Sequence record: OQ992558.1
From: Escherichia phage L14
Length of the DNA stretch: 64,000 bases
Reading direction: 5' to 3' (one strand)
Every line of letters begins with the position of its first letter. Positions within the stretch are counted from its first letter, which is position 1. This document shows, in pieces, positions 20,038 through 50,250 of the stretch. The position numbers and the translations under genes were made by a program. The notes beneath the pieces were generated by a model. It searched no databases. It saw only the letters and a program-made list of their open reading frames with translations, and was not told where the DNA came from.

Positions 20038-20357
20038 CATTATGTTCAGATAAGGTCGTTAATCTTACCCCGGAATTATATCCAGCTGCATGTCACCATG
20101 CAGATCAGACTATATCTTCAACTTGTTAAAGCAAGTTGTCTATCGTTTCGAGTCACTTGACCCTACTCCCCAAAGGGATAGTCGTTAGGCATTTATGTAG
20201 AACCAATTCCATTTATCAGATTTTACACGGTAAGTAACTAATCCTGATGAAATTATTAAAGGGTAGTCCTACAATTTAGCACGGGATTGTCTACTAGAGA
20301 GGTCCCCCGTTTAGATAGATTACAAGTATAAGTCACCTTATACCTAGGCCTCAATTA
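20038..20357 (-). ncRNA. group I self-splicing intron in td, about 320 nt, no internal ORF
   Basis: intron ends match my memory of the T4 td intron (5-prime UAAUUGAGGCCU..., 3-prime ...CUGAACAUAAUG); in-frame TAA directly after exon 1; no ORF over 60 aa inside. Confidence 0.85.
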
Positions 20358-20906
20358 ACCCAAGAAAACATCTACACTGCGTTGATACCATTGTAAATCA
20401 AGATAACCATTACGCACATTAAACTGATAGAACATATGACAAGGTGGTAATGCCATATATTTAAGTTCAGCTGGATTCCACGCAGAAACAATTTGACGCC
20501 TATCACTTGGTAGTTTTTTAATACGATCAATAACTTCTATAATTTGGTCTACACCGCCAAAATCGCGCCACTGTTTTCCATAAATTGGGCCAAGTTCACC
20601 ACTATGGTATCCTAAATCTTTTGCCTGATTTTCGTAATTTTCATCCCAAACTGTTTTGCCTTGGATTAACGAATCATGCTGAATTAATCGTAAATCATTG
20701 ACATTTGTGCTTCCTGATAAAAACCAAAGTAGCTCAGCAATGCAAGCTTTCCAGGCGAGCTTCTTAGTTGTTACCGCAGGAAAACCTTTAGTTAAATCCC
20801 AGCGTAATTTAGTACCGAATAAAGCAATTGTTCCTGTGCCTGTTCGGTCATCGGTTTCATAGCCATTTTCAAAAATGTCTTTAATTAAATCTTGGTATTG
20901 TTTCAT
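20358..20906 (-). CDS. td: thymidylate synthase, exon 1
   Basis: 183 aa ending ...VDVFLG, then intron. Confidence 0.9.
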
Positions 20907-26939: not shown

Positions 26940-29900
26940 ATGGCCGAGATTAAAAGAAAGTTCAGAGCAGAAGATGGTCTGGACGCAGGTGGCGATAAAA
27001 TAATCAACGTAGCTTTAGCTGATCGTACCGTAGGAACTGACGGTGTTAACGTTGATTACTTAATTCAAGAAAACACAGTTCAACAATATGATCCAACTCG
27101 TGGATATTTAAAAGATTTTGTAATCATTTATAATAATCGTTTTTGGGCAGCAACGGATAATATTCCAAAACCTGCTGGAAATTTTAATAGAATTCGTTGG
27201 AAAGCATTACGTACTGATGCTGTATATACAACCGTATCATCTGGACCATATCAATTAAAATCCGGAGAAGCAATTTCAGTAGATACATCAGTTGGCAATG
27301 ACATTGAGTTTACTTTACCACCTTCTCCGCTTGATGGAGAAACCGTAATAATTCAAGATATCGGTGGAAAACCTGGCATAAATCAGGTTAAAATAAATTC
27401 TTCAAATCAGAGTATTGTCAATTTTAGAGGTGAACAGGTACGTTCAGTTTTAATGACTCATCCAAAGTCACAGATGGTATTCATTTTTAATAACCGTTTG
27501 TGGCAAATGTATATTGCTGATTATAGCAGAGAAGCTGCGATTGTTACTCCATCGACTGCATATCAAGCACAATCTAATGATTTTATCGTGCGTAGATTTA
27601 CTTCCGCTGCGCCGATTAATATTAAACTTCCAAGATTTGCCAATCATGGAGATATCATTAATTTCGTTGATTTAGATAAATTAAATCCACTTTATCATAC
27701 AATTGTTACGACATATGATGAAACGACGTCAGTGCAAGAAGTTGGAACTCATTCCATTGAAGGCCGTACATCGATTGACGGTTTCTTGATGTTTGACGAT
27801 AATGAGAAATTGTGGAGATTGTTTGACGGGGATAGTAAAGCACGTTTACGCATTATAACAACTAATTCAAATATTCGTCCAAATGAAGAAGTCATGGTAT
27901 TTGGTGCGAATAACGGAACAACCCAAACAATTGAACTTCAGCTTCCGACTGATATTTCTGTTGGTGATACTGTTAAAATTTCCATGAATTACATGAGAAA
28001 AGGACAAACAGTTAAAATCAAAGCTGCTGGTGAAGATAAAATTGCTTCTTCAGTTCAATTGCTGCAATTCCCAAAACGTTCAGAATATCCGCCTGAAGCT
28101 GAATGGGTAACAGTTCAAGAATTAGTTTTTAATGGTGAAACTAATTATGTACCAGTTTTACAGCTTGCTTATATCGAAGATTCTGATGGAAAATACTGGG
28201 TTGTACAGCAAAACGTTCCAACAGTTGAAAGAGTCGATTCTTTAAATAATTCTACTAGAGCAAGATTAGGCGTAATTGCTTTAGCTACACAAGCTCAAGC
28301 AAATGCTGATTTAGAAAATTCTCCACAAAAAGAATTAGCAATTACTCCAGAAACGTTAGCTAATCGTACTGCTACTGAAACTCGCAGAGGTATTGCAAGA
28401 ATAGCAACTACTGCTCAAGTAAATCAGAACACCACATTCTCTTTTGCAGATGACATTATCATCACTCCTAAAAAGCTGAATGAAAGAACTGCTACAGAAA
28501 CTCGTAGAGGTGTTGCTGAAATTGCTACGCAGCAAGAAACTAATACAGGTACTGATGATACTACAATCATCACTCCTAAAAAGCTTCAAGCTCGTCAAGG
28601 TTCTGAATCATTATCTGGTATTGTAACTTTTGTATCTACTGCAGGAGCTACTCCAGCTTCTAGTCGTGAATTAAATGGTACGAATGTTTATAATAAAAAC
28701 ACTAATAATTTAGTTGTTTCACCTAAAGCTTTGGATCAGTATAAAGCTACTCCAACGCAACAAGGCGCAGTAATTTTAGCAGTTGAAAGTGAAGTAATTG
28801 CTGGACAAAGCCAAGAAGGATGGGCAAATGCGGTTGTAACACCAGAAACGTTACATAAAAAGACATCAACTGATGGAAGAATTGGTTTAATTGAAATTGC
28901 TACGCAAAGCGAAGTTAATACAGGAACTGATTATACTCGCGCAGTCACTCCTAAAACTTTAAATGACCGTAGAGCAACTGAAAGTTTAAGTGGTATAGCT
29001 GAAATTGCTACGCAAGTTGAATTCGACGCAGGCGTCGACGATACTCGTATCTCTACACCATTAAAAATTAAAACCAGATTTAATAGTACTGATCGTACTT
29101 CTGTTGTTGCTCTATCTGGATTAGTTGAATCAGGAACTCTCTGGGACCATTATACCCTTAATATTCTTGAAGCAAATGAGACACAGCGTGGTACACTTCG
29201 TGTAGCTACACAAGTTGAAGCTGCTGCAGGAACATTGGATAATGTTCTAATAACTCCTAAAAAGCTTTTAGGTACTAAATCTACTGAAGCACAGGAAGGC
29301 GTTATTAAAGTTGCAACTCGGTCTGAAACTGTAGCTGGAACGTCAGCAAATACTGCTGTATCTCCAAAAAATTTAAAATGGATTGTGCAGAGTGAACCTA
29401 CTTGGGCAGCGACTACTGCGATAAGAGGTTTTGTTAAAACTTCGTCTGGTTCAATTACATTCGTTGGTAATGATACAGCTGGTTCAACACAGCCATTAGA
29501 ATCATATGAGAAAAATGGTTATGCAGTATCACCATATGAATTAAATCGCGTATTAGCAAATTATTTGCCATTAAAAGCAAAAGCCGTAGATAGTAATTTA
29601 TTAGATGGTCTAGATTCGCTCCAGTTCATTCGTAGGGACATTGCACAAACAGTTAATGGTTCACTAACCTTAACCCAACAAACGAATCTGGGTGCCCCTC
29701 TTGTATCATCTAGTACTGCTACATTCGGTGGATCAGTTTCAGCAAATAGTACATTAACTATTTCTAATACTGGAACGGCAACTCGTCTGATTTTTGAGAA
29801 AGGACCTCAAACTGGAACAAACCCGGCTCAAACGATGACAGTCAGAGTGTGGGGAAATCAATTTAGCGGGGAATCAGACACAACACGTTCTACCGTATTT

Positions 29901-30809
29901 GAAGTTAGTGATGAAACGTCTAGTCATTTTTATTCTCAGCGTAATAAAGCTGGAAATATAACATTTAATATCAACGGTACAGTAACACCGATAAATGTTA
30001 ATGCTTCAGGAACATTGAATGCAAATGGTGTAGCAACATTTGGTAATTCAGTCACTGCAACTGGTGAAATTATTTCTCGAAGCGCAAATGCTTTCCGTGC
30101 TATTAGCGGAAATTATGGTTTCATTGTTCGCAATGACGGGTCAGTAACGAATTTTATGCTTACTGCATCGGGTGATCAGACTGGTGGATTTAATGGATTA
30201 CGTCCATTGTCCATTAATAATCAATCTGGGCAGGTCACAATTGGTGAAAGCTTGATCATTGCTAAAGGTGCTACTATAAATTCAGGTGGTTTAACTGTTA
30301 ACTCGAGAATTCGTTCTCAGGGCACTAAAACATCTGATTTATACACCCGCGCTCCAACATCTGATACTGTAGGATTCTGGTCAATTGATATTAACGATTC
30401 AGCCACTTATAACCAGTTCCCGGGTTATTTTAAAATGGTTGAAAAAACTAATGAAGTGACTGGGCTTCCATACTTAGAACGTGGCGAAGAAGTTAAATCT
30501 CCTGGTACATTGACTCAGTTTGGTAACACACTTGATTCACTTTACCAAGATTGGATTACTTATCCAACGACCCCAGAAGCACGTACCACTCGCTGGACAC
30601 GTACATGGCAAAAAACTAAAAACTCTTGGTCAAGTTTTGTTCAGGTATTTGATGGAGGTAACCCTCCTCAACCTTCGGATATAGGAGCAATTCCATCTGA
30701 TAATGGAATAATAGGTAATCTTACTATTCGTGATTTCTTACGAATTGGTAATGTTCGCATTATTCCTGACCCAGTGAATAAAACTGTTAAATTTGAATGG
30801 GTTGAATAA
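26940..30809 (+). CDS. 34: long tail fibre proximal subunit
   Basis: 1289 aa, recognised as T4 gp34; internal fibrous repeats. Confidence 0.95.
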   Translation: MAEIKRKFRAEDGLDAGGDKIINVALADRTVGTDGVNVDYLIQENTVQQYDPTRGYLKDFVIIYNNRFWAATDNIPKPAGNFNRIRWKALRTDAVYTTVSSGPYQLKSGEAISVDTSVGNDIEFTLPPSPLDGETVIIQDIGGKPGINQVKINSSNQSIVNFRGEQVRSVLMTHPKSQMVFIFNNRLWQMYIADYSREAAIVTPSTAYQAQSNDFIVRRFTSAAPINIKLPRFANHGDIINFVDLDKLNPLYHTIVTTYDETTSVQEVGTHSIEGRTSIDGFLMFDDNEKLWRLFDGDSKARLRIITTNSNIRPNEEVMVFGANNGTTQTIELQLPTDISVGDTVKISMNYMRKGQTVKIKAAGEDKIASSVQLLQFPKRSEYPPEAEWVTVQELVFNGETNYVPVLQLAYIEDSDGKYWVVQQNVPTVERVDSLNNSTRARLGVIALATQAQANADLENSPQKELAITPETLANRTATETRRGIARIATTAQVNQNTTFSFADDIIITPKKLNERTATETRRGVAEIATQQETNTGTDDTTIITPKKLQARQGSESLSGIVTFVSTAGATPASSRELNGTNVYNKNTNNLVVSPKALDQYKATPTQQGAVILAVESEVIAGQSQEGWANAVVTPETLHKKTSTDGRIGLIEIATQSEVNTGTDYTRAVTPKTLNDRRATESLSGIAEIATQVEFDAGVDDTRISTPLKIKTRFNSTDRTSVVALSGLVESGTLWDHYTLNILEANETQRGTLRVATQVEAAAGTLDNVLITPKKLLGTKSTEAQEGVIKVATRSETVAGTSANTAVSPKNLKWIVQSEPTWAATTAIRGFVKTSSGSITFVGNDTAGSTQPLESYEKNGYAVSPYELNRVLANYLPLKAKAVDSNLLDGLDSLQFIRRDIAQTVNGSLTLTQQTNLGAPLVSSSTATFGGSVSANSTLTISNTGTATRLIFEKGPQTGTNPAQTMTVRVWGNQFSGESDTTRSTVFEVSDETSSHFYSQRNKAGNITFNINGTVTPINVNASGTLNANGVATFGNSVTATGEIISRSANAFRAISGNYGFIVRNDGSVTNFMLTASGDQTGGFNGLRPLSINNQSGQVTIGESLIIAKGATINSGGLTVNSRIRSQGTKTSDLYTRAPTSDTVGFWSIDINDSATYNQFPGYFKMVEKTNEVTGLPYLERGEEVKSPGTLTQFGNTLDSLYQDWITYPTTPEARTTRWTRTWQKTKNSWSSFVQVFDGGNPPQPSDIGAIPSDNGIIGNLTIRDFLRIGNVRIIPDPVNKTVKFEWVE
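28350..29430 (+). repeat. internal tandem-like fibre repeats within gp34 (about 6 copies of a roughly 40-aa unit)
   Basis: recurring pattern TE(T/S)R(R)G(I/V)A(E/R)IAT..E.N.GTDDT.IITPKKL visible in the translation. Confidence 0.5.
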
Positions 30810-30817
30810 GAGGTATT

Positions 30818-31933
30818 ATGGAAAAATTTATGGCAGAGTTTGGACAAGGATATGTCCAAACGCCATTTTTATCGGAAAGCAATTCAGTAAGATATAAAAT
30901 AAGCATAGCGGGCTCTTGCCCGCTTTCTACTGCAGGGCCATATGTTAAATTTCAGGATAATCCCGTTGGAAATCAAACATTTAGTGCAGGTCTTCATTTA
31001 AGAGTTTTTGACCCTTCTACGGGAGCATTAGTTGATAGCAAGTCATATGCTTTTTCTGCTTCAAACAATACAACATCTGCCGCTTTTGTCAGTTTCATGA
31101 ATTCTTTGTCAAACAATAGACTTGTTGCTATATTAACTAGCGGAAAGGTTAATTTTCCTCCTGAAGTGGTATCTTGGTTAAGGGGAGCAGGAACTTCAGT
31201 TTTTCCATCAGATTCAGTATTGTCAAGATTTGACGTGTCATATGCTGCTTTTTATACTTCTTCTAAAAGAGCTATTGCATTAGAGCATGTTAAACTAAGT
31301 AATAGAAAAAGCACAGATGATTATCAAACTATTTTAGATGTTGTATTTGATAGTTTAGAAGACGTCGGAGCTACAGGATTTCCTAAAAGAACATATGAAA
31401 GTGTAGAGCAATTCATGTCAGCAGTTGGTGGAACTAATAACGAAATTGCGCGATTGCCAACTTCAGCTGCTATAAGTAAACTTTCTGACTACAATTTAAT
31501 TCCTGGTGATGTTCTTTATCTTAAAGCACAACTATATGCTGATGCTGATTTACTTGATCTTGGAACTACAAATATATCTATTCGTTTTTATGATGCATCA
31601 AATGGATATATTTCCTCGACCCAAGCTGAGTTTACTGGGCAAGCTGGGTCTTGGGAATTAAAAGAAGATTATGTAGTTGTTCCTGAAAATGCAGTAGGAT
31701 TTACGATATATGCACAAAGAACTGCTCAAGCAGGTCAAGGCGGCATGAGAAATTTAAGTTTTTCTGAAGTATCAAGAAATGGCGGCATTTCAAAACCTGC
31801 CGAATTTGGCGTCAACGGTATTCGCGTTAATTATGTCTGTGAATCGGCTTCACCTCCAGATATAATGGTACTTCCTACACAAGCCTCTTCTAAAACTGGC
31901 AAAGTGTTTGGACAGGAATTTAGAGAAGTTTAA
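30818..31933 (+). CDS. 35: long tail fibre hinge connector
   Basis: 371 aa, position and size match T4 gp35. Confidence 0.88.
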   Translation: MEKFMAEFGQGYVQTPFLSESNSVRYKISIAGSCPLSTAGPYVKFQDNPVGNQTFSAGLHLRVFDPSTGALVDSKSYAFSASNNTTSAAFVSFMNSLSNNRLVAILTSGKVNFPPEVVSWLRGAGTSVFPSDSVLSRFDVSYAAFYTSSKRAIALEHVKLSNRKSTDDYQTILDVVFDSLEDVGATGFPKRTYESVEQFMSAVGGTNNEIARLPTSAAISKLSDYNLIPGDVLYLKAQLYADADLLDLGTTNISIRFYDASNGYISSTQAEFTGQAGSWELKEDYVVVPENAVGFTIYAQRTAQAGQGGMRNLSFSEVSRNGGISKPAEFGVNGIRVNYVCESASPPDIMVLPTQASSKTGKVFGQEFREV

Positions 31934-31995: not shown

Positions 31996-32646
31996 ATGGC
32001 TGATTTAAAAGTAGGTTCAACTGTAGGTGGATCTGTCATTTGGCATCAAGGAAATTTTCCATTGAATTCAGCCGGTGACGATGTACTCTACAAATCATTT
32101 AAAATATATTCAGAATATAATAAACCACAGGCAGCTGATAACGATTTCGTTTCTAAAGCTAATGGTGGTACTTACACCGGTCCAATTACTATTAATTACG
32201 GGGTAAATAGTTATCTTCAATTAAGTAATAATGAAACCCCCATTCGAATTCGTTCTGGTGGCGGTACCGGTAATACTCTTGTAGTTGGCGGCTCTTCCGG
32301 CGGTATTAGTTTTAGACCTGCAGGTAGTGAAATCACTACTGGACAAATTACTATTACACCAGAAGGTTTGACAACATTTACCAGGGCTGTAACGGCTCCA
32401 TCGGTAACTGTTACATCTACTCCTTCCGCAGCATCTGATGTTACTCGCAAAGATTATGTTGATGGAGCAATAAATACTGTTACAGCAAATGCAAACTCTA
32501 GGGTATTACGCTCTGGAGACACTATGACAGGAAATTTAACTGCGCCAAACCTTTTTTCACAGAATCCTGCATCTCAACCTTCACACGTTCCACGATTTGA
32601 CCAAATCGTAATTAAGGATTCTGTTCAAGATTTCGGCTATTATTAA
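31996..32646 (+). CDS. 36: long tail fibre distal connector
   Basis: 216 aa, position and size match T4 gp36. Confidence 0.88.
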
Positions 32647-32654
32647 GAGGACTT

Positions 32655-35639
32655 ATGGCTACTTTAAAACAAATACAATTTAAAAGAAGCAAAATTGCAG
32701 GTCAACGTCCTGCAGCTTCAGTATTAGCCGAAGGTGAATTGGCTATAAACTTAAAAGATAAAACAATTTTCACAAAAGATGACTCAGGTAGTGTTATAGA
32801 ATTAGGTTTAAAATATGGAGGAACAATTGATGGTTCTTTAACTGTTAATGGAAATATAATTGGAAATTTAACAGGTAACGCTGCAACTGCAACGAAATTA
32901 AAAACAGCACGAAAAATTAATGGTATATCCTTTGATGGGTCAAAAGATATCACGCTAACTCCATCTGACATAAATGTCAATAGCACAACGTTTATAAAAA
33001 ATAATGGCGAATTACCTGTTGATGCTAATTTAGATACGTATGGGCCTGTTGAAGAATATCTTGGAGTTTGGTCGAAAGCAACTTCAACCAACGCTCAACC
33101 AGCAAATAAATTTCCAGAAGAAAATGCTGTAGGTGTGCTAGAAGTATTTGTGGCCGGTCAATTTGCTGGTACTCAGAGATATACAACTAGATACGGAAAT
33201 GTTTATATTCGTTCCTTGACTGCTACATGGAACGGAGTAAATGGTCCGTGGAGTGTGTGGCGAAATATTCAATCCGGTACTCGTCCACTGTCAACAACAA
33301 TTGATCTTAATGATCTAGGAGGCGCTGAACACTTTGGTTTGTGGCGAAATAGTTCAAATTCCATTGCTACCTTTGACAGAAATTTCCCAGAAGAGGGGTC
33401 GTCAGCTCAAGGTCTTTTGGAAGTATATGAAGGTGGAAAATATTCTCGTACACAAAGATATACAACCAGATTTGGTGTTGTATATACTCGTTGTCTTGCT
33501 GCCGCGTGGGATGCTTCCGCGCCTAAATGGGGACCGTGGCAACAAGTCGGTAATGTCACACCAGCGACTTTCTATGACGGAGATCTGAATGATTTTAAAA
33601 CCCCTGGGTTATATAATATTTTAGGCACTGATGCCGTTATTAACTGTCCTACAGGTGAAGGTTTGCCGCCTGTTATTATTGGTTTACTGGAAGTTAAACA
33701 GCGTGCTTCCGGTGGTGCTATTTTCCAAAAATTTACTACTGCCGGAACGGGTGCAACTACTCGCGGACGTATTTTTGAGCGTGCATATACTGGTGGTGCG
33801 TGGGGCGCATGGAACGAAGTATATACATCTTATTCTCTGCCAATTACTTTGGGTATGGGTGGTATTAAAACTCAATTAGCGGAGCTAGATTGGCAAACAT
33901 TTGATTTTGTTCCTGGTAGTATGTTTAGCGTTCCTTTGAACAAAATAAAGAACATGCCAGCAAATATGGATTGGGGCACGATTGATGGAAACTTGATTAT
34001 GTTTTCCGTCGGTCCTAGCGAACACACTAGCACAGGGCGTACTGTTCAGGTTTGGCGTGGTACTGTATCCCAGACAAACTACCGTTATTTTGTCGTTCGT
34101 GTATTCGGTAATTCAGGAAATAGAGCTTGCACAGTTCGTCGTGTTGTTCTTGAAGATGGTCGCCACAAATGGACAGCGCAACAAGATTTTAATGGTGCTG
34201 TTAACTTCGGTGCTCCTACCAATTTTAACTCTACTGTTAACCTTAATAACACTACCACTTTTAAAACAGAAGTTAAATTTCGCTCATTGAATGCATTCCG
34301 TATGTATGGCGGAAAATTTGGTACATTTTTACGTAATGATGGAGAGAGTCTTTATATTCTTTCCACCGACGAAGATGATCAAGATGGAAACTTTAATACA
34401 AATAGACCTTTCCGTTATGAATTAAGAACTGGTGATGTTACTTTGGGTGGTGCTAGTGGTGCTAACGTTTTAAAATTAAAACGTGATTCTCTCACCGCAT
34501 TTTTTGGTGGTGATATTAACATGAAAGGCTTGATGACTTTTGACGCCGGACGTTTAGGATCACGAGATTATTTTAAATTTAACCATTGGGGTGATAGCAA
34601 TAACGCTCGTGATAACATTATTCAGTTAGAAGATAGCAAAGGCGTTCATTTTTCCACTGAACGTACTTTAGCGACTGGTGCAATTAAAACTAAATTCTTT
34701 GGTGAAGTTGAATCAACTGGTCGATTGACTATTAAACGTCCGGGTGATGCGATTGTATTATCGACTACAGCCAGCAACTCTTTGCATATTCGTGGTGACG
34801 TAGACGGGACTGGTAACTGGTATATTGGCAAGGGTGGTGCTGATAATGGATTAGCGTTCTATAGTTATGCTACTAATGCTGGTGTATACATTACAAACGG
34901 AGGGGATATCGCGCTAAGTCCAAAAGGTGTCGAAATGGCTCAGGTCAATAACGTTCGATTATATGTTCATGGTGAACGTTGGACCGCTAGTCAACCAGGT
35001 GATTGGGGTAGTCAGTGGCAAGTGGAAGCGCCAATATTCGTCGATCATGGTTATGTTTCACAGGATTGTTATTATCCAATTATTAAAGGAAGAAGTGTAA
35101 TCACCAATCAAGGGTATGTAACTGCCGTCGATCTTGGTATTCGTCGTGTCAATAACAATTGGGGACAAGCAATTATTCGTGTTGGATCTGCAGAGGCATC
35201 GCCAGCGGCTGGACACCCTAACGCGGTATTTGAATTTCATTACGACGGTACTTTCTATTCTCCTGGTAATGGTAATTTTAGCGATGTGTATATTCGTTCT
35301 GACTCCCGTCTCAAGATTAATAAAGAAGAATTAGAATATGGAGCGGTCGAAAAAGTTTGCCGACTAAAAGTTTATATTTACGATAAAGTTAAGTCTATTA
35401 AAGACCGTAGTGTTATTAAACGTGAAGTTGGTATTATTGCTCAGGACCTTGAAAAGGAATTGCCGGAAGCTGTATCTAAAGTTGAAGTTGATGGATCTGA
35501 TGTTCTGACAATTTCTAACTCTGCTGTGAATGCTCTTTTAATTAAGGCCATTCAGGAAATGAGCGAAGAAATTAAAGAATTGAAAACACCTTTCTTCACT
35601 AAAATTGCTCGCAAAATTAGTAATTATTTTAAATTCTAA
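32655..35639 (+). CDS. 37: long tail fibre distal subunit with C-terminal intramolecular chaperone domain
   Basis: 994 aa; C-terminal about 113 aa carries an S74-like SDxRxK motif (SDSRLK). Confidence 0.93.
35298..35636 (+). other. predicted self-cleaving intramolecular chaperone domain of gp37
   Basis: motif SDSRLK followed by a coiled-coil-like tail. Confidence 0.55.
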
Positions 35640-35671
35640 CAGCAGGGGGCTTTGCCCCTTTGGAGAAAATT

Positions 35672-36454
35672 ATGGCAGTAGTTGGTGTTCCTGGTTGGAT
35701 TGGTAGTTCATCCGTAAATGAAACAGGACAACGATGGATGAGTCAAGCGGCTGGTCAATTAAGATTGGGTATTCCTTGCTGGATGAGTCAATTTGCAGGT
35801 CGCTCAAGAGAAATTATTCACACGCTTGGAGCAGACCATAACTTCAATGGTCAATGGTTCCGAGATAGATGTTTTGAGGCAGGTAGTGCACCTATAGTGT
35901 TTAATATCACTGGAGATTTAGTATCATATTCTAAAGATGTTCCTTTATTCTTCATGTACGGAGATACACCGAATGAATATGTTCAGTTGAACATACATGG
36001 TGTAACGATGTATGGCCGTGGCGGGAATGGCGGTAGCAATAGTCCTGGCTCAGCTGGGGGTCATTGTATTCAAAATGATATTGGTGGGAGACTAAGAATT
36101 AATAATGGTGGAGCTATTGCTGGCGGCGGTGGCGGCGGGGGCGGCGGGTATTATTCTCCTTTTTCACAAATGAGATTGACCTTTGGCGGTGGCGGCGGTC
36201 GTCCGTTTGGCGCACCGGGCGGATCTATTGATATGCAATCAGGAGCAACTGCTGGTACTATTTCTGCGCCAGGCGCAGGGTCTGTGAACGGTATCTACAA
36301 CGGCGGGTCTGGTGGTGAAGTTGGCTCCGCAGGAGGTAGATGTAATATTCGTGGTCAAGGATATGAATACGATGGCGGAGCTGCTGGTTATGCCGTCATA
36401 GGGTCTACACCGACATGGCAAAACGTTGGAGCAATATATGGTCCAAGAGTATAA
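35672..36454 (+). CDS. 38: tail fibre adhesin gp38, T2-type with glycine-rich motifs
   Basis: 260 aa from ATG at 35672 (GGAG RBS); C-terminal half has GGGGGGGG and other poly-Gly segments separating variable stretches. Confidence 0.85.
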
Positions 36455-36486: not shown

Positions 36487-37143
36487 ATGGCAGCACCTAG
36501 AATATCATTTTCGCCCTCTGATATTCTATTTGGTGTTCTAGATCGCTTGTTCAAAGATAACGCTACCGGGAAAGTTCTTGCTTCCCGGGTAGCTGTCGTA
36601 ATTCTTTTGTTTATGATGGCGATTGTTTGGTATAGGGGAGATAGTTTCTTTGAGTACTATAAGCAATCAAAGTATGAAACATACAGTGAAATTATTGAAA
36701 AGGAAAGAAATGCACGCTTTGAATCTGTCGCCCTGGAACAACTCCAGATAGTTCACATATCATCTGAGGCAGACTTTAGTGCGGTGTATTCTTTCCGCCC
36801 TAAAAACTTAAACTATTTTGTTGATATTATAGCATATGAAGGAAAATTACCTTCAACAATAAGTGAAAAATCACTTGGAGGATATCCTGTTGATAAAACT
36901 ATGGATGAATATACAGTTCATTTAAATGGACGTCATTATTATTCCGACTCAAAATTTGCTTTTTTACCAACTAAAAAGCCTACTCCCGAAATAAACTACA
37001 TGTACAGTTGTCCATATTTTAATTTGGATAATATCTATGCTGGAACGATAACCATGTACTGGTATAGAAATGATCATATAAGTAATGACCGCCTTGAATC
37101 AATATGTGCTCAGGCGGCCAGAATATTAGGAAGGGCTAAATAA
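36487..37143 (+). CDS. t: holin T (lysis timing, lysis inhibition target)
   Basis: 218 aa, recognised as T4 holin; single N-terminal TM and large periplasmic domain. Confidence 0.9.
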   Translation: MAAPRISFSPSDILFGVLDRLFKDNATGKVLASRVAVVILLFMMAIVWYRGDSFFEYYKQSKYETYSEIIEKERNARFESVALEQLQIVHISSEADFSAVYSFRPKNLNYFVDIIAYEGKLPSTISEKSLGGYPVDKTMDEYTVHLNGRHYYSDSKFAFLPTKKPTPEINYMYSCPYFNLDNIYAGTITMYWYRNDHISNDRLESICAQAARILGRAK

Positions 37144-48400: not shown

Positions 48401-48430
48401 ATTATACCACATCCTTGTGGTAAAGTAAAC
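48401..48430 (-). promoter_or_regulatory. T4-type early promoter
   Basis: minus strand GTTTAC-18nt-GGTATAAT. Confidence 0.5.
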
Positions 48431-50250
48431 TACTGGCTCATCCATTCTTTACGAAGGTCAGCATTATCTCCCATGAGCATTTCAAAAAGCTCTTTCCAGT
48501 TCTCAGGAAGTTTAACAACATCATATACTGGATTTTGAATCATCTCACGATATTCAGATTTTTCCAAAGAGCCAAGTCCTTTAATATAACGGATGCTATG
48601 TTTAGGTAGAGCATCTTTAGCACTCTCATATTCAGCGACTGTATAAAACCATTCTTGTTTTTTACCGACCTGAGCGATGATTACAGGAGTTTTGACAAAA
48701 CGAATTCTTCCTTGCTCAAACAGTTCTGGCCAATTACTAAAAAACCCGAGCAGAGAAGGATAAATGCTTCCTAGACCATCATGGTCAGCATCAGTCATAA
48801 TAGCAATATTATGATAATTCAAGTTTTCAGCTTTTTCACCGAGAACTAATCCAGTGATTGCGCAAATATCAAACAATTCTTTGTTTTTAAGCATATCAGC
48901 ATATGACATACCCCAACTGTTGAGAACTTTACCGCGCAATGGATAACCACCATGAAGTTCTTTATCACGAACATCAATAAGATATCCGATAGCAGAATCA
49001 CCCTCAGTCAAGAAAAGAGTAGTGTCAGCATCTTTACCGCAAAGATTCGCTTTAATGTGTTTATGAACCTTAGCTTTAGAAGCCTTTTTAGCTGCTTTAG
49101 TTTCTGCTGCCTTTTCTGCCGCCAATTTACGAGCCAAAGCAGCTTCAATAATTGGCATTAAAATTGCTTCATTGTTTAAAATAGCACGTGAAATCTTTTT
49201 AGCATCAAGCTGAATATGACTACGAATTTCACCAAATGGAGAAGTCAAACGCTCTTTAGTTTGAGAATCAAATCGCATGTTTTTCATATCACGAACAAAC
49301 ATAACGATAGTCAAACATTCTTTAACACGTGCTTTAGTTACATCAATTTTGAACTTACGTTTGATTTGTGGAATAAGGTCTTCACAAATATCATCCATAA
49401 CACAGTCAATGTGATGGCCACCATTCTTAGTGTGAATGTTATTGACGTATGTTAATTGACGAAAACCATCCGGTGAACGACCAACCGCAATAGAACAATT
49501 TTCTTGTTCTTGAACAATAGCATGCTCATCATATTGGCGTGCATATTTCTTAAAATTGCCCTGAACCTTTTTACCATTAAAGGTAAATTGAATATCAGGA
49601 TAAACTACTGCAAGTGTCTGGAGACGATCTAGTGTAATGTCAAGATAAACTTGGGACAGCTCATTAGTTTCAAATGACATAAAATCAGGAATGAAAGTAA
49701 CACGAGTTCCTTTCCATTTTCCAGGAATAGTTTCCCATGATTTATTTTCCATGCCATTTGAACAACGAACTACAATATTATTTTGACCATCACCAGTTTC
49801 ACCGACAAACATCACAGAAAAAATGTTTGTCAAACTAGAACCAACACCATTCATACCGCCAGTGACGCGTTCTTTATCATCACCGAAGTTACCACCTGCT
49901 TTTGGAATAGTCCATGCAGCAACAGGACCAGGAATTTCTTCACCGGTAGGTGTTTTAACCATCGCCTGCGGAATACCACGACCGTTATCTTCAACTGTTA
50001 CTTGATTGTTTTTAATAGTAACATTAATTTTATTTGCGAATTTAAACTTAGTACGAATACCTTCATCTACTGAGTTATCGATAATTTCATCAATAAGCTT
50101 AACAAGACCAGGTACATACTGAACACTTTCCCATTTACCAAACAGAAAGCGCTCATGCATTTCATTAGCAGAAGAGCCAATATACATGCCGCTACGCTTT
50201 TTGATATGTTCAATATCACTCAGAATTTTAATTTCATTCTTAATCATCAC
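48430..50250 (-). CDS. 39: DNA topoisomerase II large subunit (GyrB-like ATPase), continuous
   Basis: 606 aa single ORF spanning what T4 splits into gene 39 and gene 60. Confidence 0.93.
   Translation of the reverse strand: MMIKNEIKILSDIEHIKKRSGMYIGSSANEMHERFLFGKWESVQYVPGLVKLIDEIIDNSVDEGIRTKFKFANKINVTIKNNQVTVEDNGRGIPQAMVKTPTGEEIPGPVAAWTIPKAGGNFGDDKERVTGGMNGVGSSLTNIFSVMFVGETGDGQNNIVVRCSNGMENKSWETIPGKWKGTRVTFIPDFMSFETNELSQVYLDITLDRLQTLAVVYPDIQFTFNGKKVQGNFKKYARQYDEHAIVQEQENCSIAVGRSPDGFRQLTYVNNIHTKNGGHHIDCVMDDICEDLIPQIKRKFKIDVTKARVKECLTIVMFVRDMKNMRFDSQTKERLTSPFGEIRSHIQLDAKKISRAILNNEAILMPIIEAALARKLAAEKAAETKAAKKASKAKVHKHIKANLCGKDADTTLFLTEGDSAIGYLIDVRDKELHGGYPLRGKVLNSWGMSYADMLKNKELFDICAITGLVLGEKAENLNYHNIAIMTDADHDGLGSIYPSLLGFFSNWPELFEQGRIRFVKTPVIIAQVGKKQEWFYTVAEYESAKDALPKHSIRYIKGLGSLEKSEYREMIQNPVYDVVKLPENWKELFEMLMGDNADLRKEWMSQ

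Follow-up and report, generated by a model that had tools for sequence, protein, structure and literature searches.

Gene organization of the tail fibre locus

The analysed window, a 64,000-nt stretch of the Escherichia phage L14 record OQ992558.1, is Tequatrovirus DNA with ~96-97% identity to T6-like phages. The order of its tail fibre genes, g34-g35-g36-g37-g38-t, is common to the L14 window, T6, T2, PST, and the fPS phages, and the holin gene t is located directly after g38. Gene 37 (positions 32655-35639, plus strand) is an open reading frame encoding the 994-aa, 109.0-kDa precursor of the distal subunit of the long tail fibre. Gene 38 (35672-36454, plus strand) encodes a 260-aa, 26.4-kDa protein that we assign, from Pfam domains, PDB matches, and homologues, as the probable fibre tip adhesin of the T6/Tsx type. 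Scans of the whole window revealed one group I intron (Rfam) and no tRNAs.

The nucleotide identity across g37 and g38 together is low (93.7%), because known modules are combined here as a mosaic. The gp37 protein contains a Gp34_trimer domain (Pfam) at residues 521-587 and shows 96.4% identity to its counterpart in phage EcNP1, which rules out a novel gp37 body. Antisense open reading frames within g37 and g38 are unsupported; the sequence that hosts them is strongly conserved coding DNA.

The stop codon of g37 and the start codon of g38 are separated by 32 nt. A GGAG ribosome-binding site, read from the sequence, lies 6 nt before the ATG of gene 38 (35662-35665, plus strand). A TTG codon at 35660, given as the start in the program-made list of open reading frames, was rejected as the gp38 start on two grounds: (i) it overlaps the GGAG site, and (ii) the ATG form aligns through its residues 1-42 with positions 1-40 of the Gp38_N model. 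As a separate observation, gp38 is annotated in longer versions in T6 and PST. The gap itself (35640-35671) contains a GGGGC...GCCCC stem of -14.3 kcal/mol, with a z-score of -0.49 against shuffled sequences, and the terminator scan found nothing in this interval; on these two results a regulatory hairpin in the gap was set aside.

The C-terminal chaperone domain of gp37

The C-terminal part of gp37 is an intramolecular chaperone domain of the Peptidase_S74 type, identified by Pfam, homology, and AF2/Foldseek analysis (residues 882-994, 12.9 kDa; 35298-35636, plus strand). A chaperone domain of roughly 113 residues carrying an SDSRLK motif had been proposed from the sequence, and the present analysis bears this out: the codon of Ser882 starts at position 35298, and exactly 113 codons lie between this point and the stop. 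The Peptidase_S74 match (PF13884) covers residues 882-940 with an E-value of 6.4e-10 and a score of 39.6 bits, compared to the Pfam cut-off of 22 bits, and is thus well beyond chance. The same family is present in 76 of the 77 database homologues, and the domain is 100% identical to that of phage a51.

Conservation points to two functional motifs within the domain. The SDSRLK motif (35298-35315, plus strand) contains the predicted catalytic dyad of Ser882, the nucleophile, and Lys887, in line with the Ser-Lys mechanism described for the S74 chaperone domains (PMC3742440). In an alignment of 63 homologues extending down to ~26% identity, S882, D883, L886, and K887 are invariant. The second motif, GIIAQ (residues 926-930; 35430-35444, plus strand), corresponds to the GVIAQ sequence named as the trimerisation region (PMC3742440); in the 63 homologues, conservation is complete at G126, I128, A129, and Q130 (fragment numbering) and reaches at least 90% at I127.

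In the AF2 model of gp37 residues 801-994, a monomer in which trimeric packing is not represented, the pLDDT values by 10-residue block are 73-93 in the chaperone part, most of them exceeding 80, and pLDDT is below 60 across most of residues 801-880, the tip preceding the cleavage site. The top 12 Foldseek matches of this model in PDB are chaperone (ICA) domains only, starting with 7dc3 (E-value 6.9e-5, TM-score 0.67 on target), then 4uw8, 3gud, and 3gw6; these fold matches are the chaperone domains of MyRF, T5 pb1, GA-1, and endoNF. The domain also aligns, weakly (E-value about 1e-3), to the S16 gp37 chain 6f45_A.

Residues 882-994 are predicted to be cut off once the trimer is made, and Ser882 would be the new N-terminus of the released fragment. 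The predicted mature gp37, delimited by alignment, comprises residues 1-881 (96.1 kDa; 32655-35297, plus strand) and ends with the beta-strand DVYIR, which should form the docking surface for gp38. In the T6-type fragment, the C-terminus is a basic, aromatic tail of 17 residues that is absent from T2.

Architecture of the gp38 adhesin

The gp38 protein matches two Pfam families, GP38 (3e-71) and Gp38_N (3.9e-20), from the PF05268/PF21721 adhesin group, and two proteins of solved structure, the PP01 adhesin (9v85_A, 3.6e-80) and S16 gp38 (6f45_D, 2.7e-49, over residues 5-257). The matches to the two solved gp38 structures are decisive. The role of gp38 as an adhesin, suggested in the original prediction, is supported by membership in a family with the known structures 6F45 and 9V85. 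By analogy with S16, PP01, T2, and T6, gp38 probably occupies the fibre tip in the virion and binds the receptor.

The N-terminal attachment domain, delimited by the Gp38_N match, spans residues 1-42 (35672-35797, plus strand) and includes Trp9, Trp22, and Trp37. These residues are conserved in T6, T2, the fPS phages, RB5, and PST and align to the three conserved tryptophans described for S16 gp38 (PMC6851490); they are predicted to act as prongs inserting into the gp37 tip.

Composition and alignment delineate a second region, residues 116-245 (36017-36406, plus strand), in which glycine-rich motifs alternate with hypervariable segments. Glycine accounts for 62 residues of the whole protein (24%) and for 46 of the 130 residues of this region (35%), which contains 12 runs of at least two glycines, including G9 at 151-159 and G5 at 172-176. 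The long form of gp38 with poly-glycine blocks separating variable segments, noted previously, is therefore confirmed. The GC content of the corresponding DNA is 0.54 compared to 0.354 for the window, owing to the glycine codons. The region aligns to the receptor-binding domains of S16 and PP01 and is predicted to form a polyglycine-II sandwich with receptor-binding loops.

Subtype of gp38 and prediction of the receptor

Near-identical homologues of gp38 are those of UGKSEcP2 and Killian (99.6% identity; one difference from UGKSEcP2) and of RB3 and RB5 (98.5%; four differences from RB5). They are followed by the adhesins of fPS-65 (96.9% identity, eight differences; also 96.9% in residues 116-245), PST (13 differences), and T6 (92%, 20 differences; 93.8% in residues 116-245). 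The identity to T2, 50% overall, falls together with that to fPS-2 to ~47-48% in residues 116-245, whereas the flanks of the fPS-2 protein are 93% identical. On these sequence comparisons, gp38 belongs to the T6-type hypervariable-segment subgroup and not to that of T2. The label "T2-type" given originally thus holds for the architecture of the locus and fails for its sequence.

Receptor specificity has been mapped by genetics to the hypervariable segments of gp38 (PMC3157838, PMC12032242), and the receptor is predictable from gp38 phylogeny (PMC12032242). Since gp38 is of the T6/RB5 type, it most likely uses the nucleoside channel Tsx as its primary receptor on E. coli and not the T2 receptors. 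RB5 is a phage with determined Tsx specificity, and Tsx is stated to be recognised by all T6-like adhesins on E. coli (Trojet et al., PMC3157838).

The Tsx assignment is not secure, because near-identical adhesins, those of fPS-65 and PST, are reported with other receptors. The tip architecture could be correct while the receptor is not Tsx (e.g. OmpA or the LPS core), or while host range depends mainly on further factors, among them the O-antigen barrier, the short fibres, and defences inside the cell; we consider this rather unlikely. In T6-like adhesins, specificity can shift with only a few changes in the hypervariable segments, as in PST, which needs Tsx, OmpA, and other factors (PMC3157838). 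The fPS-65 adhesin is assigned to LPS inner-core heptose on Yersinia (PMC7917993), and residues S213 and Y231 of the L14 protein differ from those of RB5, T6, fPS-65, and PST. On the other hand, only the four differences separate the protein from the adhesin of the Tsx phage RB5, its hypervariable segment HVS2 is identical to HVS2 of RB5, and the PST changes Q166R, M167I, and G207I are absent. The proposal that host range is set by the variable segments of gp38 and not by gp37 is accordingly retained for the choice of the primary receptor only, given that near-identical adhesins are associated with other receptors on other hosts.

Proposed assembly of the fibre tip

The distal tip of the long tail fibre encoded by the locus is very probably the standard module of a T2/T6-type Tequatrovirus. 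Its assembly would proceed as follows: (i) gp37 would be synthesised as the 994-aa precursor, (ii) its last 113 residues, the S74 chaperone, would cause the beta-helical tip ahead of them to trimerise and fold, (iii) on completion of the trimer, Ser882 activated by Lys887 would cut the Arg881/Ser882 bond, (iv) departure of the 12.9-kDa fragment would expose the DVYIR strand surface, and (v) one gp38 would attach to this surface by means of Trp9, Trp22, and Trp37 in its N-terminal three-helix domain, giving a probable 3:1 stoichiometry. The docked gp38 would present the polyglycine-II sandwich, the distal hypervariable loops of which may bind the outer-membrane receptor.

The cleavage step of this scheme is modelled on relatives. 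The last 113 residues of S16 gp37 are reported to be autocleaved at DLNVS^SDRRIKK, and a published prediction places cleavage in the fPS phages at DVYIR^SDGRLKI (PMC7917993). Proteolytic processing of gp37 is also reported in T2 and T6 (PMC7917993; PMC3157838, citing Drexler 1986), where gp38 then caps the fibre (PMC3157838), and capping by gp38 is likewise published for S16. Alternatively, the chaperone domain might fold the fibre and stay on the virion gp37, with gp38 binding elsewhere or transiently. Sequence alone cannot show cleavage activity, which leaves some room for such a retained domain. We find it very improbable, as the Ser-Lys dyad and the surrounding motif are invariant in the homologues, processing or autocleavage is reported in T2, T6, and S16, and in the structure of the S16 tip gp38 docks on the very face that removal of the chaperone exposes.

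We give hardly any weight to a second role of the released 113-aa fragment with its 17-residue tail (e.g. in the membrane or in lysis timing, given the holin gene nearby), or to a shift of specificity off Tsx caused by the few private gp38 residues, I34, S213, and Y231. The idea that gp38 is a T4-like assembly chaperone outside the virion and that gp37 itself binds the receptor draws on the shared name and position of T4 g38, the product of which is a released chaperone (PMC12892980, PMC6851490), and has next to no probability, since the L14 protein falls into the PF05268/PF21721 families and has E-values of 1e-49 to 1e-80 against solved tip adhesins, T4 gp38 is described as having no sequence relationship to them (PMC6851490), and the C-terminus of gp37 here is a chaperone domain in place of the needle-type receptor-binding tip of T4.

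Homology to relatives studied by experiment thus supports the cleaved gp37 tip capped by gp38 that the original prediction proposed. The arrangement is already known: publications on near-identical phages cover its architecture, the site of cleavage, and what the hypervariable loops of gp38 do, and crystal structures are available for two members of the gp38 family. The gp37/gp38 tip of L14 opens no fresh question; its use lies in annotation and in the prediction of the receptor, probably Tsx, for the design of phage-therapy cocktails and the engineering of host range.

Comparison with known systems

Comparison of the L14 module with related systems revealed both shared and variable components. 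T6 and the RB3/RB5 group have the same gene order, the 994-aa gp37, and the same set of hypervariable segments. The T6 chaperone domain (113 aa) is identical to that of L14 across the aligned region, whereas RB5 has another variant of 117 aa that is ~67% identical. The presence of this variant beside a near-identical gp38 shows that modules are shuffled between gp37 ends and gp38. The Yersinia phages fPS-65, fPS-2, and fPS-90 (PMC7917993) share the DVYIR^SD.RLKI junction with L14, in the form SDSRLK in L14 and fPS-65 and SDGRLK in fPS-2; they differ in their Yersinia isolation hosts and in the reported receptors, LPS core and OmpF.

Phage T2 has the same gp37/gp38 arrangement and a VYIR^SD.RLK junction. 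Its gp37 is longer than that of L14, its chaperone domain of 99 aa is ~42% identical and lacks the C-terminal 17 residues, and its receptors are OmpF/FadL. Alignment of the variable segments with those of T2, suggested as a check of the original prediction, gave ~47% identity in the glycine-rich region. In S16 (PDB 6F45; Dunne et al. 2018), a 113-residue C-terminal chaperone of gp37 is likewise combined with a separate gp38, which is monomeric and consists of a three-Trp attachment domain, a beta-helix, and a polyglycine-II sandwich. The S16 gp37 tip ahead of the cut is unrelated to that of L14 except for the last few residues, and S16 binds OmpC. Other S74 proteins, endosialidase K1F, GA-1 gp12, T5 pb1, and eukaryotic MyRF, share the Pfam family, the Ser-Lys dyad, the GxIAQ motif, and the fold with the L14 domain. 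In contrast to these proteins, the surface exposed in L14 would receive a separate adhesin and would not itself be the functional tip.

Genomic context of the gp37-gp38 region

The window is a piece of a T4-like phage genome of the genus Tequatrovirus, and a 24-kb query around the gp37-gp38 region matched T6-like coliphages, among them Pinarejo, GADU22, KK4 and T6, at 95-97% identity. A complete long-tail-fibre operon lies on the plus strand: g34 (26940-30809; 1289 aa), g35 (30818-31933), g36 (31996-32646), g37 (32655-35639; 994 aa) and g38 (35672-36454; 260 aa), followed by the holin gene t (36487-37143). The feature analyzed here (35298-36454) comprises all of g38 together with the 3'-terminal 113 codons of g37.

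Several other features were observed in the window. The hinge connector gp35 (30818-31933) matches, over residues 58-112, the Pfam family PF15711 (ILEI, interleukin-like EMT inducer; E 8e-8; 33.1 bits vs a cut-off of 27), a name that one would not expect for the hinge of a phage fibre. On the minus strand, a group I catalytic intron at 20086-20367 (Rfam RF00028, matched over the whole model at 70.3 bits) adjoins an ORF at 20355-20906; judging from its position among early genes upstream of g34, this intron is presumably of the td type known from T-even phages. Also on the minus strand, a single 606-aa ORF (48430-50250) occupies what we take to be the place of the split topoisomerase subunit of T4 (genes 39 and 60), and is presumably consistent with the unsplit subunit of other T-even phages.

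Chaperone domain of gp37

The original prediction that roughly the last 113 aa of gp37, with their SDSRLK motif, form an intramolecular chaperone domain was borne out: nt 35298 is the first base of the Ser882 codon, where this hexapeptide begins. Pfam detects Peptidase_S74 ('chaperone of endosialidase', PF13884) at residues 882-940 (E 6.4e-10; 39.6 bits, curated cut-off 22 bits), and 76 of the 77 homologues of gp37 801-994 found in a large protein collection carry the same domain. In an alignment of 63 of these 77 homologues, reaching down to ~26% identity, the invariant positions are S882, D883, L886, K887, G926, I928, A929, Q930 and the LPEAV stretch. They match the published Ser-Lys catalytic dyad, in which the cut is made at the serine, and the G(V/I)IAQ motif required for trimerisation of the domain (PMC3742440). 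From this alignment an AlphaFold2 model of residues 801-994 was built; its pLDDT averages 71.8 and is mostly above 80 in the chaperone part. Its best 12 Foldseek matches in PDB are all solved chaperone domains, including MyRF ICA (7dc3; E 6.9e-5), the T5 L-shaped fibre with its chaperone (4uw8), GA-1 gp12 (3gud) and endosialidase NF (3gw6). The S16 gp37 chain of 6F45 also aligns by sequence with the C-terminal region. Thus, by profile, motifs and fold, the gp37 C-terminus belongs to the S74 chaperone family. The invariant Ser-Lys dyad makes it very unlikely that the domain is left uncleaved on gp37.

T6-type chaperone domains end in a basic, aromatic tail ([17 protein letters not shown]; gp37 aa 978-994, nt 35586-35636), which in the model forms the last part of a long helix.

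The gp38 adhesin

The gp38 start is ATG 35672, located 6 nt downstream of GGAG; the TTG at 35660 proposed by a mechanical ORF list was rejected, as it overlaps this ribosome-binding site. As foreseen, the 260-aa protein is rich in glycine (62 residues in total; 35% of residues 116-245), with runs of nine at 151-159 and five at 172-176, and this content accounts for a local GC peak of 0.51-0.54 vs 0.354 for the window. Glycine-rich motifs alternate with variable segments, the pattern that forms a polyglycine-II sandwich.

Its assignment to the tip adhesin family was likewise upheld by Pfam domains Gp38_N (residues 1-42; 3.9e-20) and GP38 (47-260; 3e-71), and by matches to the two gp38 structures that have been solved: 9V85, which is the receptor-binding domain of PP01 (3.6e-80), and 6F45, in which chain D is the S16 adhesin bound to the tip of gp37 (2.7e-49; residues 5-257 aligned). 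The N-terminal tryptophans W9, W22 and W37 are the same three that in S16 gp38 are inserted into gp37 trimer pockets, according to the S16 structure paper. In contrast, T4 gp38, called an unrelated released chaperone by the S16 structure authors, is of a different kind to which the window gp38 does not belong. Given this family assignment, a T4-like gp38 acting only as a chaperone is very unlikely.

Proposed maturation and receptor

By analogy with S16, T2, T6, RB5 and PP01, gp37 would be synthesised as a 109-kDa precursor whose C-terminal domain nucleates trimer folding. Ser882 with Lys887 would then cleave between R881 and S882, freeing a 12.9-kDa fragment and leaving a mature 96.1-kDa chain that ends in DVYIR. 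One gp38 would dock on the exposed face, with its variable loops available for receptor binding.

The window gp38 has one difference from UGKSEcP2 (I34V), 4 from RB5, 8 from fPS-65, 13 from PST and 20 from T6. Trojet et al. (PMC3157838) determined that RB5 uses Tsx as its receptor; they also state that recognition of Tsx on E. coli is common to all T6-like adhesins and that the PST changes 167R, 168I and 208I widen specificity. In comparison with PST, none of these three changes (Q166R, M167I and G207I in window numbering) is present in the window gp38. The receptor is predictable from gp38 phylogeny, with Tsx the commonest class (Lutz et al., PMC12032242). The resemblance to RB5 and T6, the absence of the PST changes and the predictive phylogeny make Tsx our best guess from sequence. 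A real caveat comes from the almost identical adhesin of fPS-65, for which the LPS inner core was assigned on Yersinia, a host without Tsx (PMC7917993, PMC3157838). The proposal that the variable segments of gp38 set host range is supported as a reading; live uncertainty is limited to the receptor and to the extent to which gp38 alone sets host range.

An apparent gp38-gp37 fusion on another contig

A 303-aa protein (P0017; L008, 6001-6912 of contig ABMKHH010000064.1, GCA_031535085.1; same contig as L009, SRR25757103) begins like a gp38 adhesin, with ~157 residues that span the attachment domain, the beta-helix and the first glycine motifs, and continues as a gp37-like tip that ends in DVYIR^SDRRLK and a full S74 chaperone domain. 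Its gene lies directly 3' of a 1140-aa fibre gene, likewise ending in S74, and the phage context is not T4-like: a capsid-protease fusion is found upstream and T5-like distal tail protein matches downstream. The phage collection contains no single-gene counterpart, every match being split between a g37 and a neighbouring g38. This protein may be a genuine recombinant adhesin, or else a chimera produced by assembly.

Comparison with known systems

The best phage match across the g37-g38 DNA taken whole is 93.7%, and the separate best matches are EcNP1 for gp37 (96.4%), a51 for the chaperone domain (100%) and UGKSEcP2 for gp38 (99.6%). The pair is mosaic, with the usual module shuffling at this locus, and the recombination boundary seems to coincide with the DVYIR/SD.RLK junction or to lie close to it, as likewise noted for fPS phages. 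Comparison of the region 32655-36454 with phage records showed independent assortment of the chaperone domain and gp38 among close relatives. RB5 has almost the same gp38, but a 117-aa chaperone variant only ~67% identical; the a51 chaperone domain is identical to that of the window.

The feature is real and was correctly read, every detail of the observation being confirmed. The T2-type label holds as a reading of the arrangement, whereas the sequence itself is T6-type: T2 gp38, to which an alignment had been suggested, is 50% identical (47% in the glycine-rich region), and the T2 chaperone domain is ~42% identical, 99 rather than 113 aa long and without the C-terminal tail. The arrangement is already known: Trojet et al. 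(PMC3157838) report that gp37 of T2 and T6 is cleaved and then capped by gp38, citing a 1986 demonstration of the processing for T2. For the fPS phages a cut at DVYIR^SDGRLKI was predicted, and the last 113 residues of S16 gp37 are described as autocleaved (Salem et al., PMC7917993).
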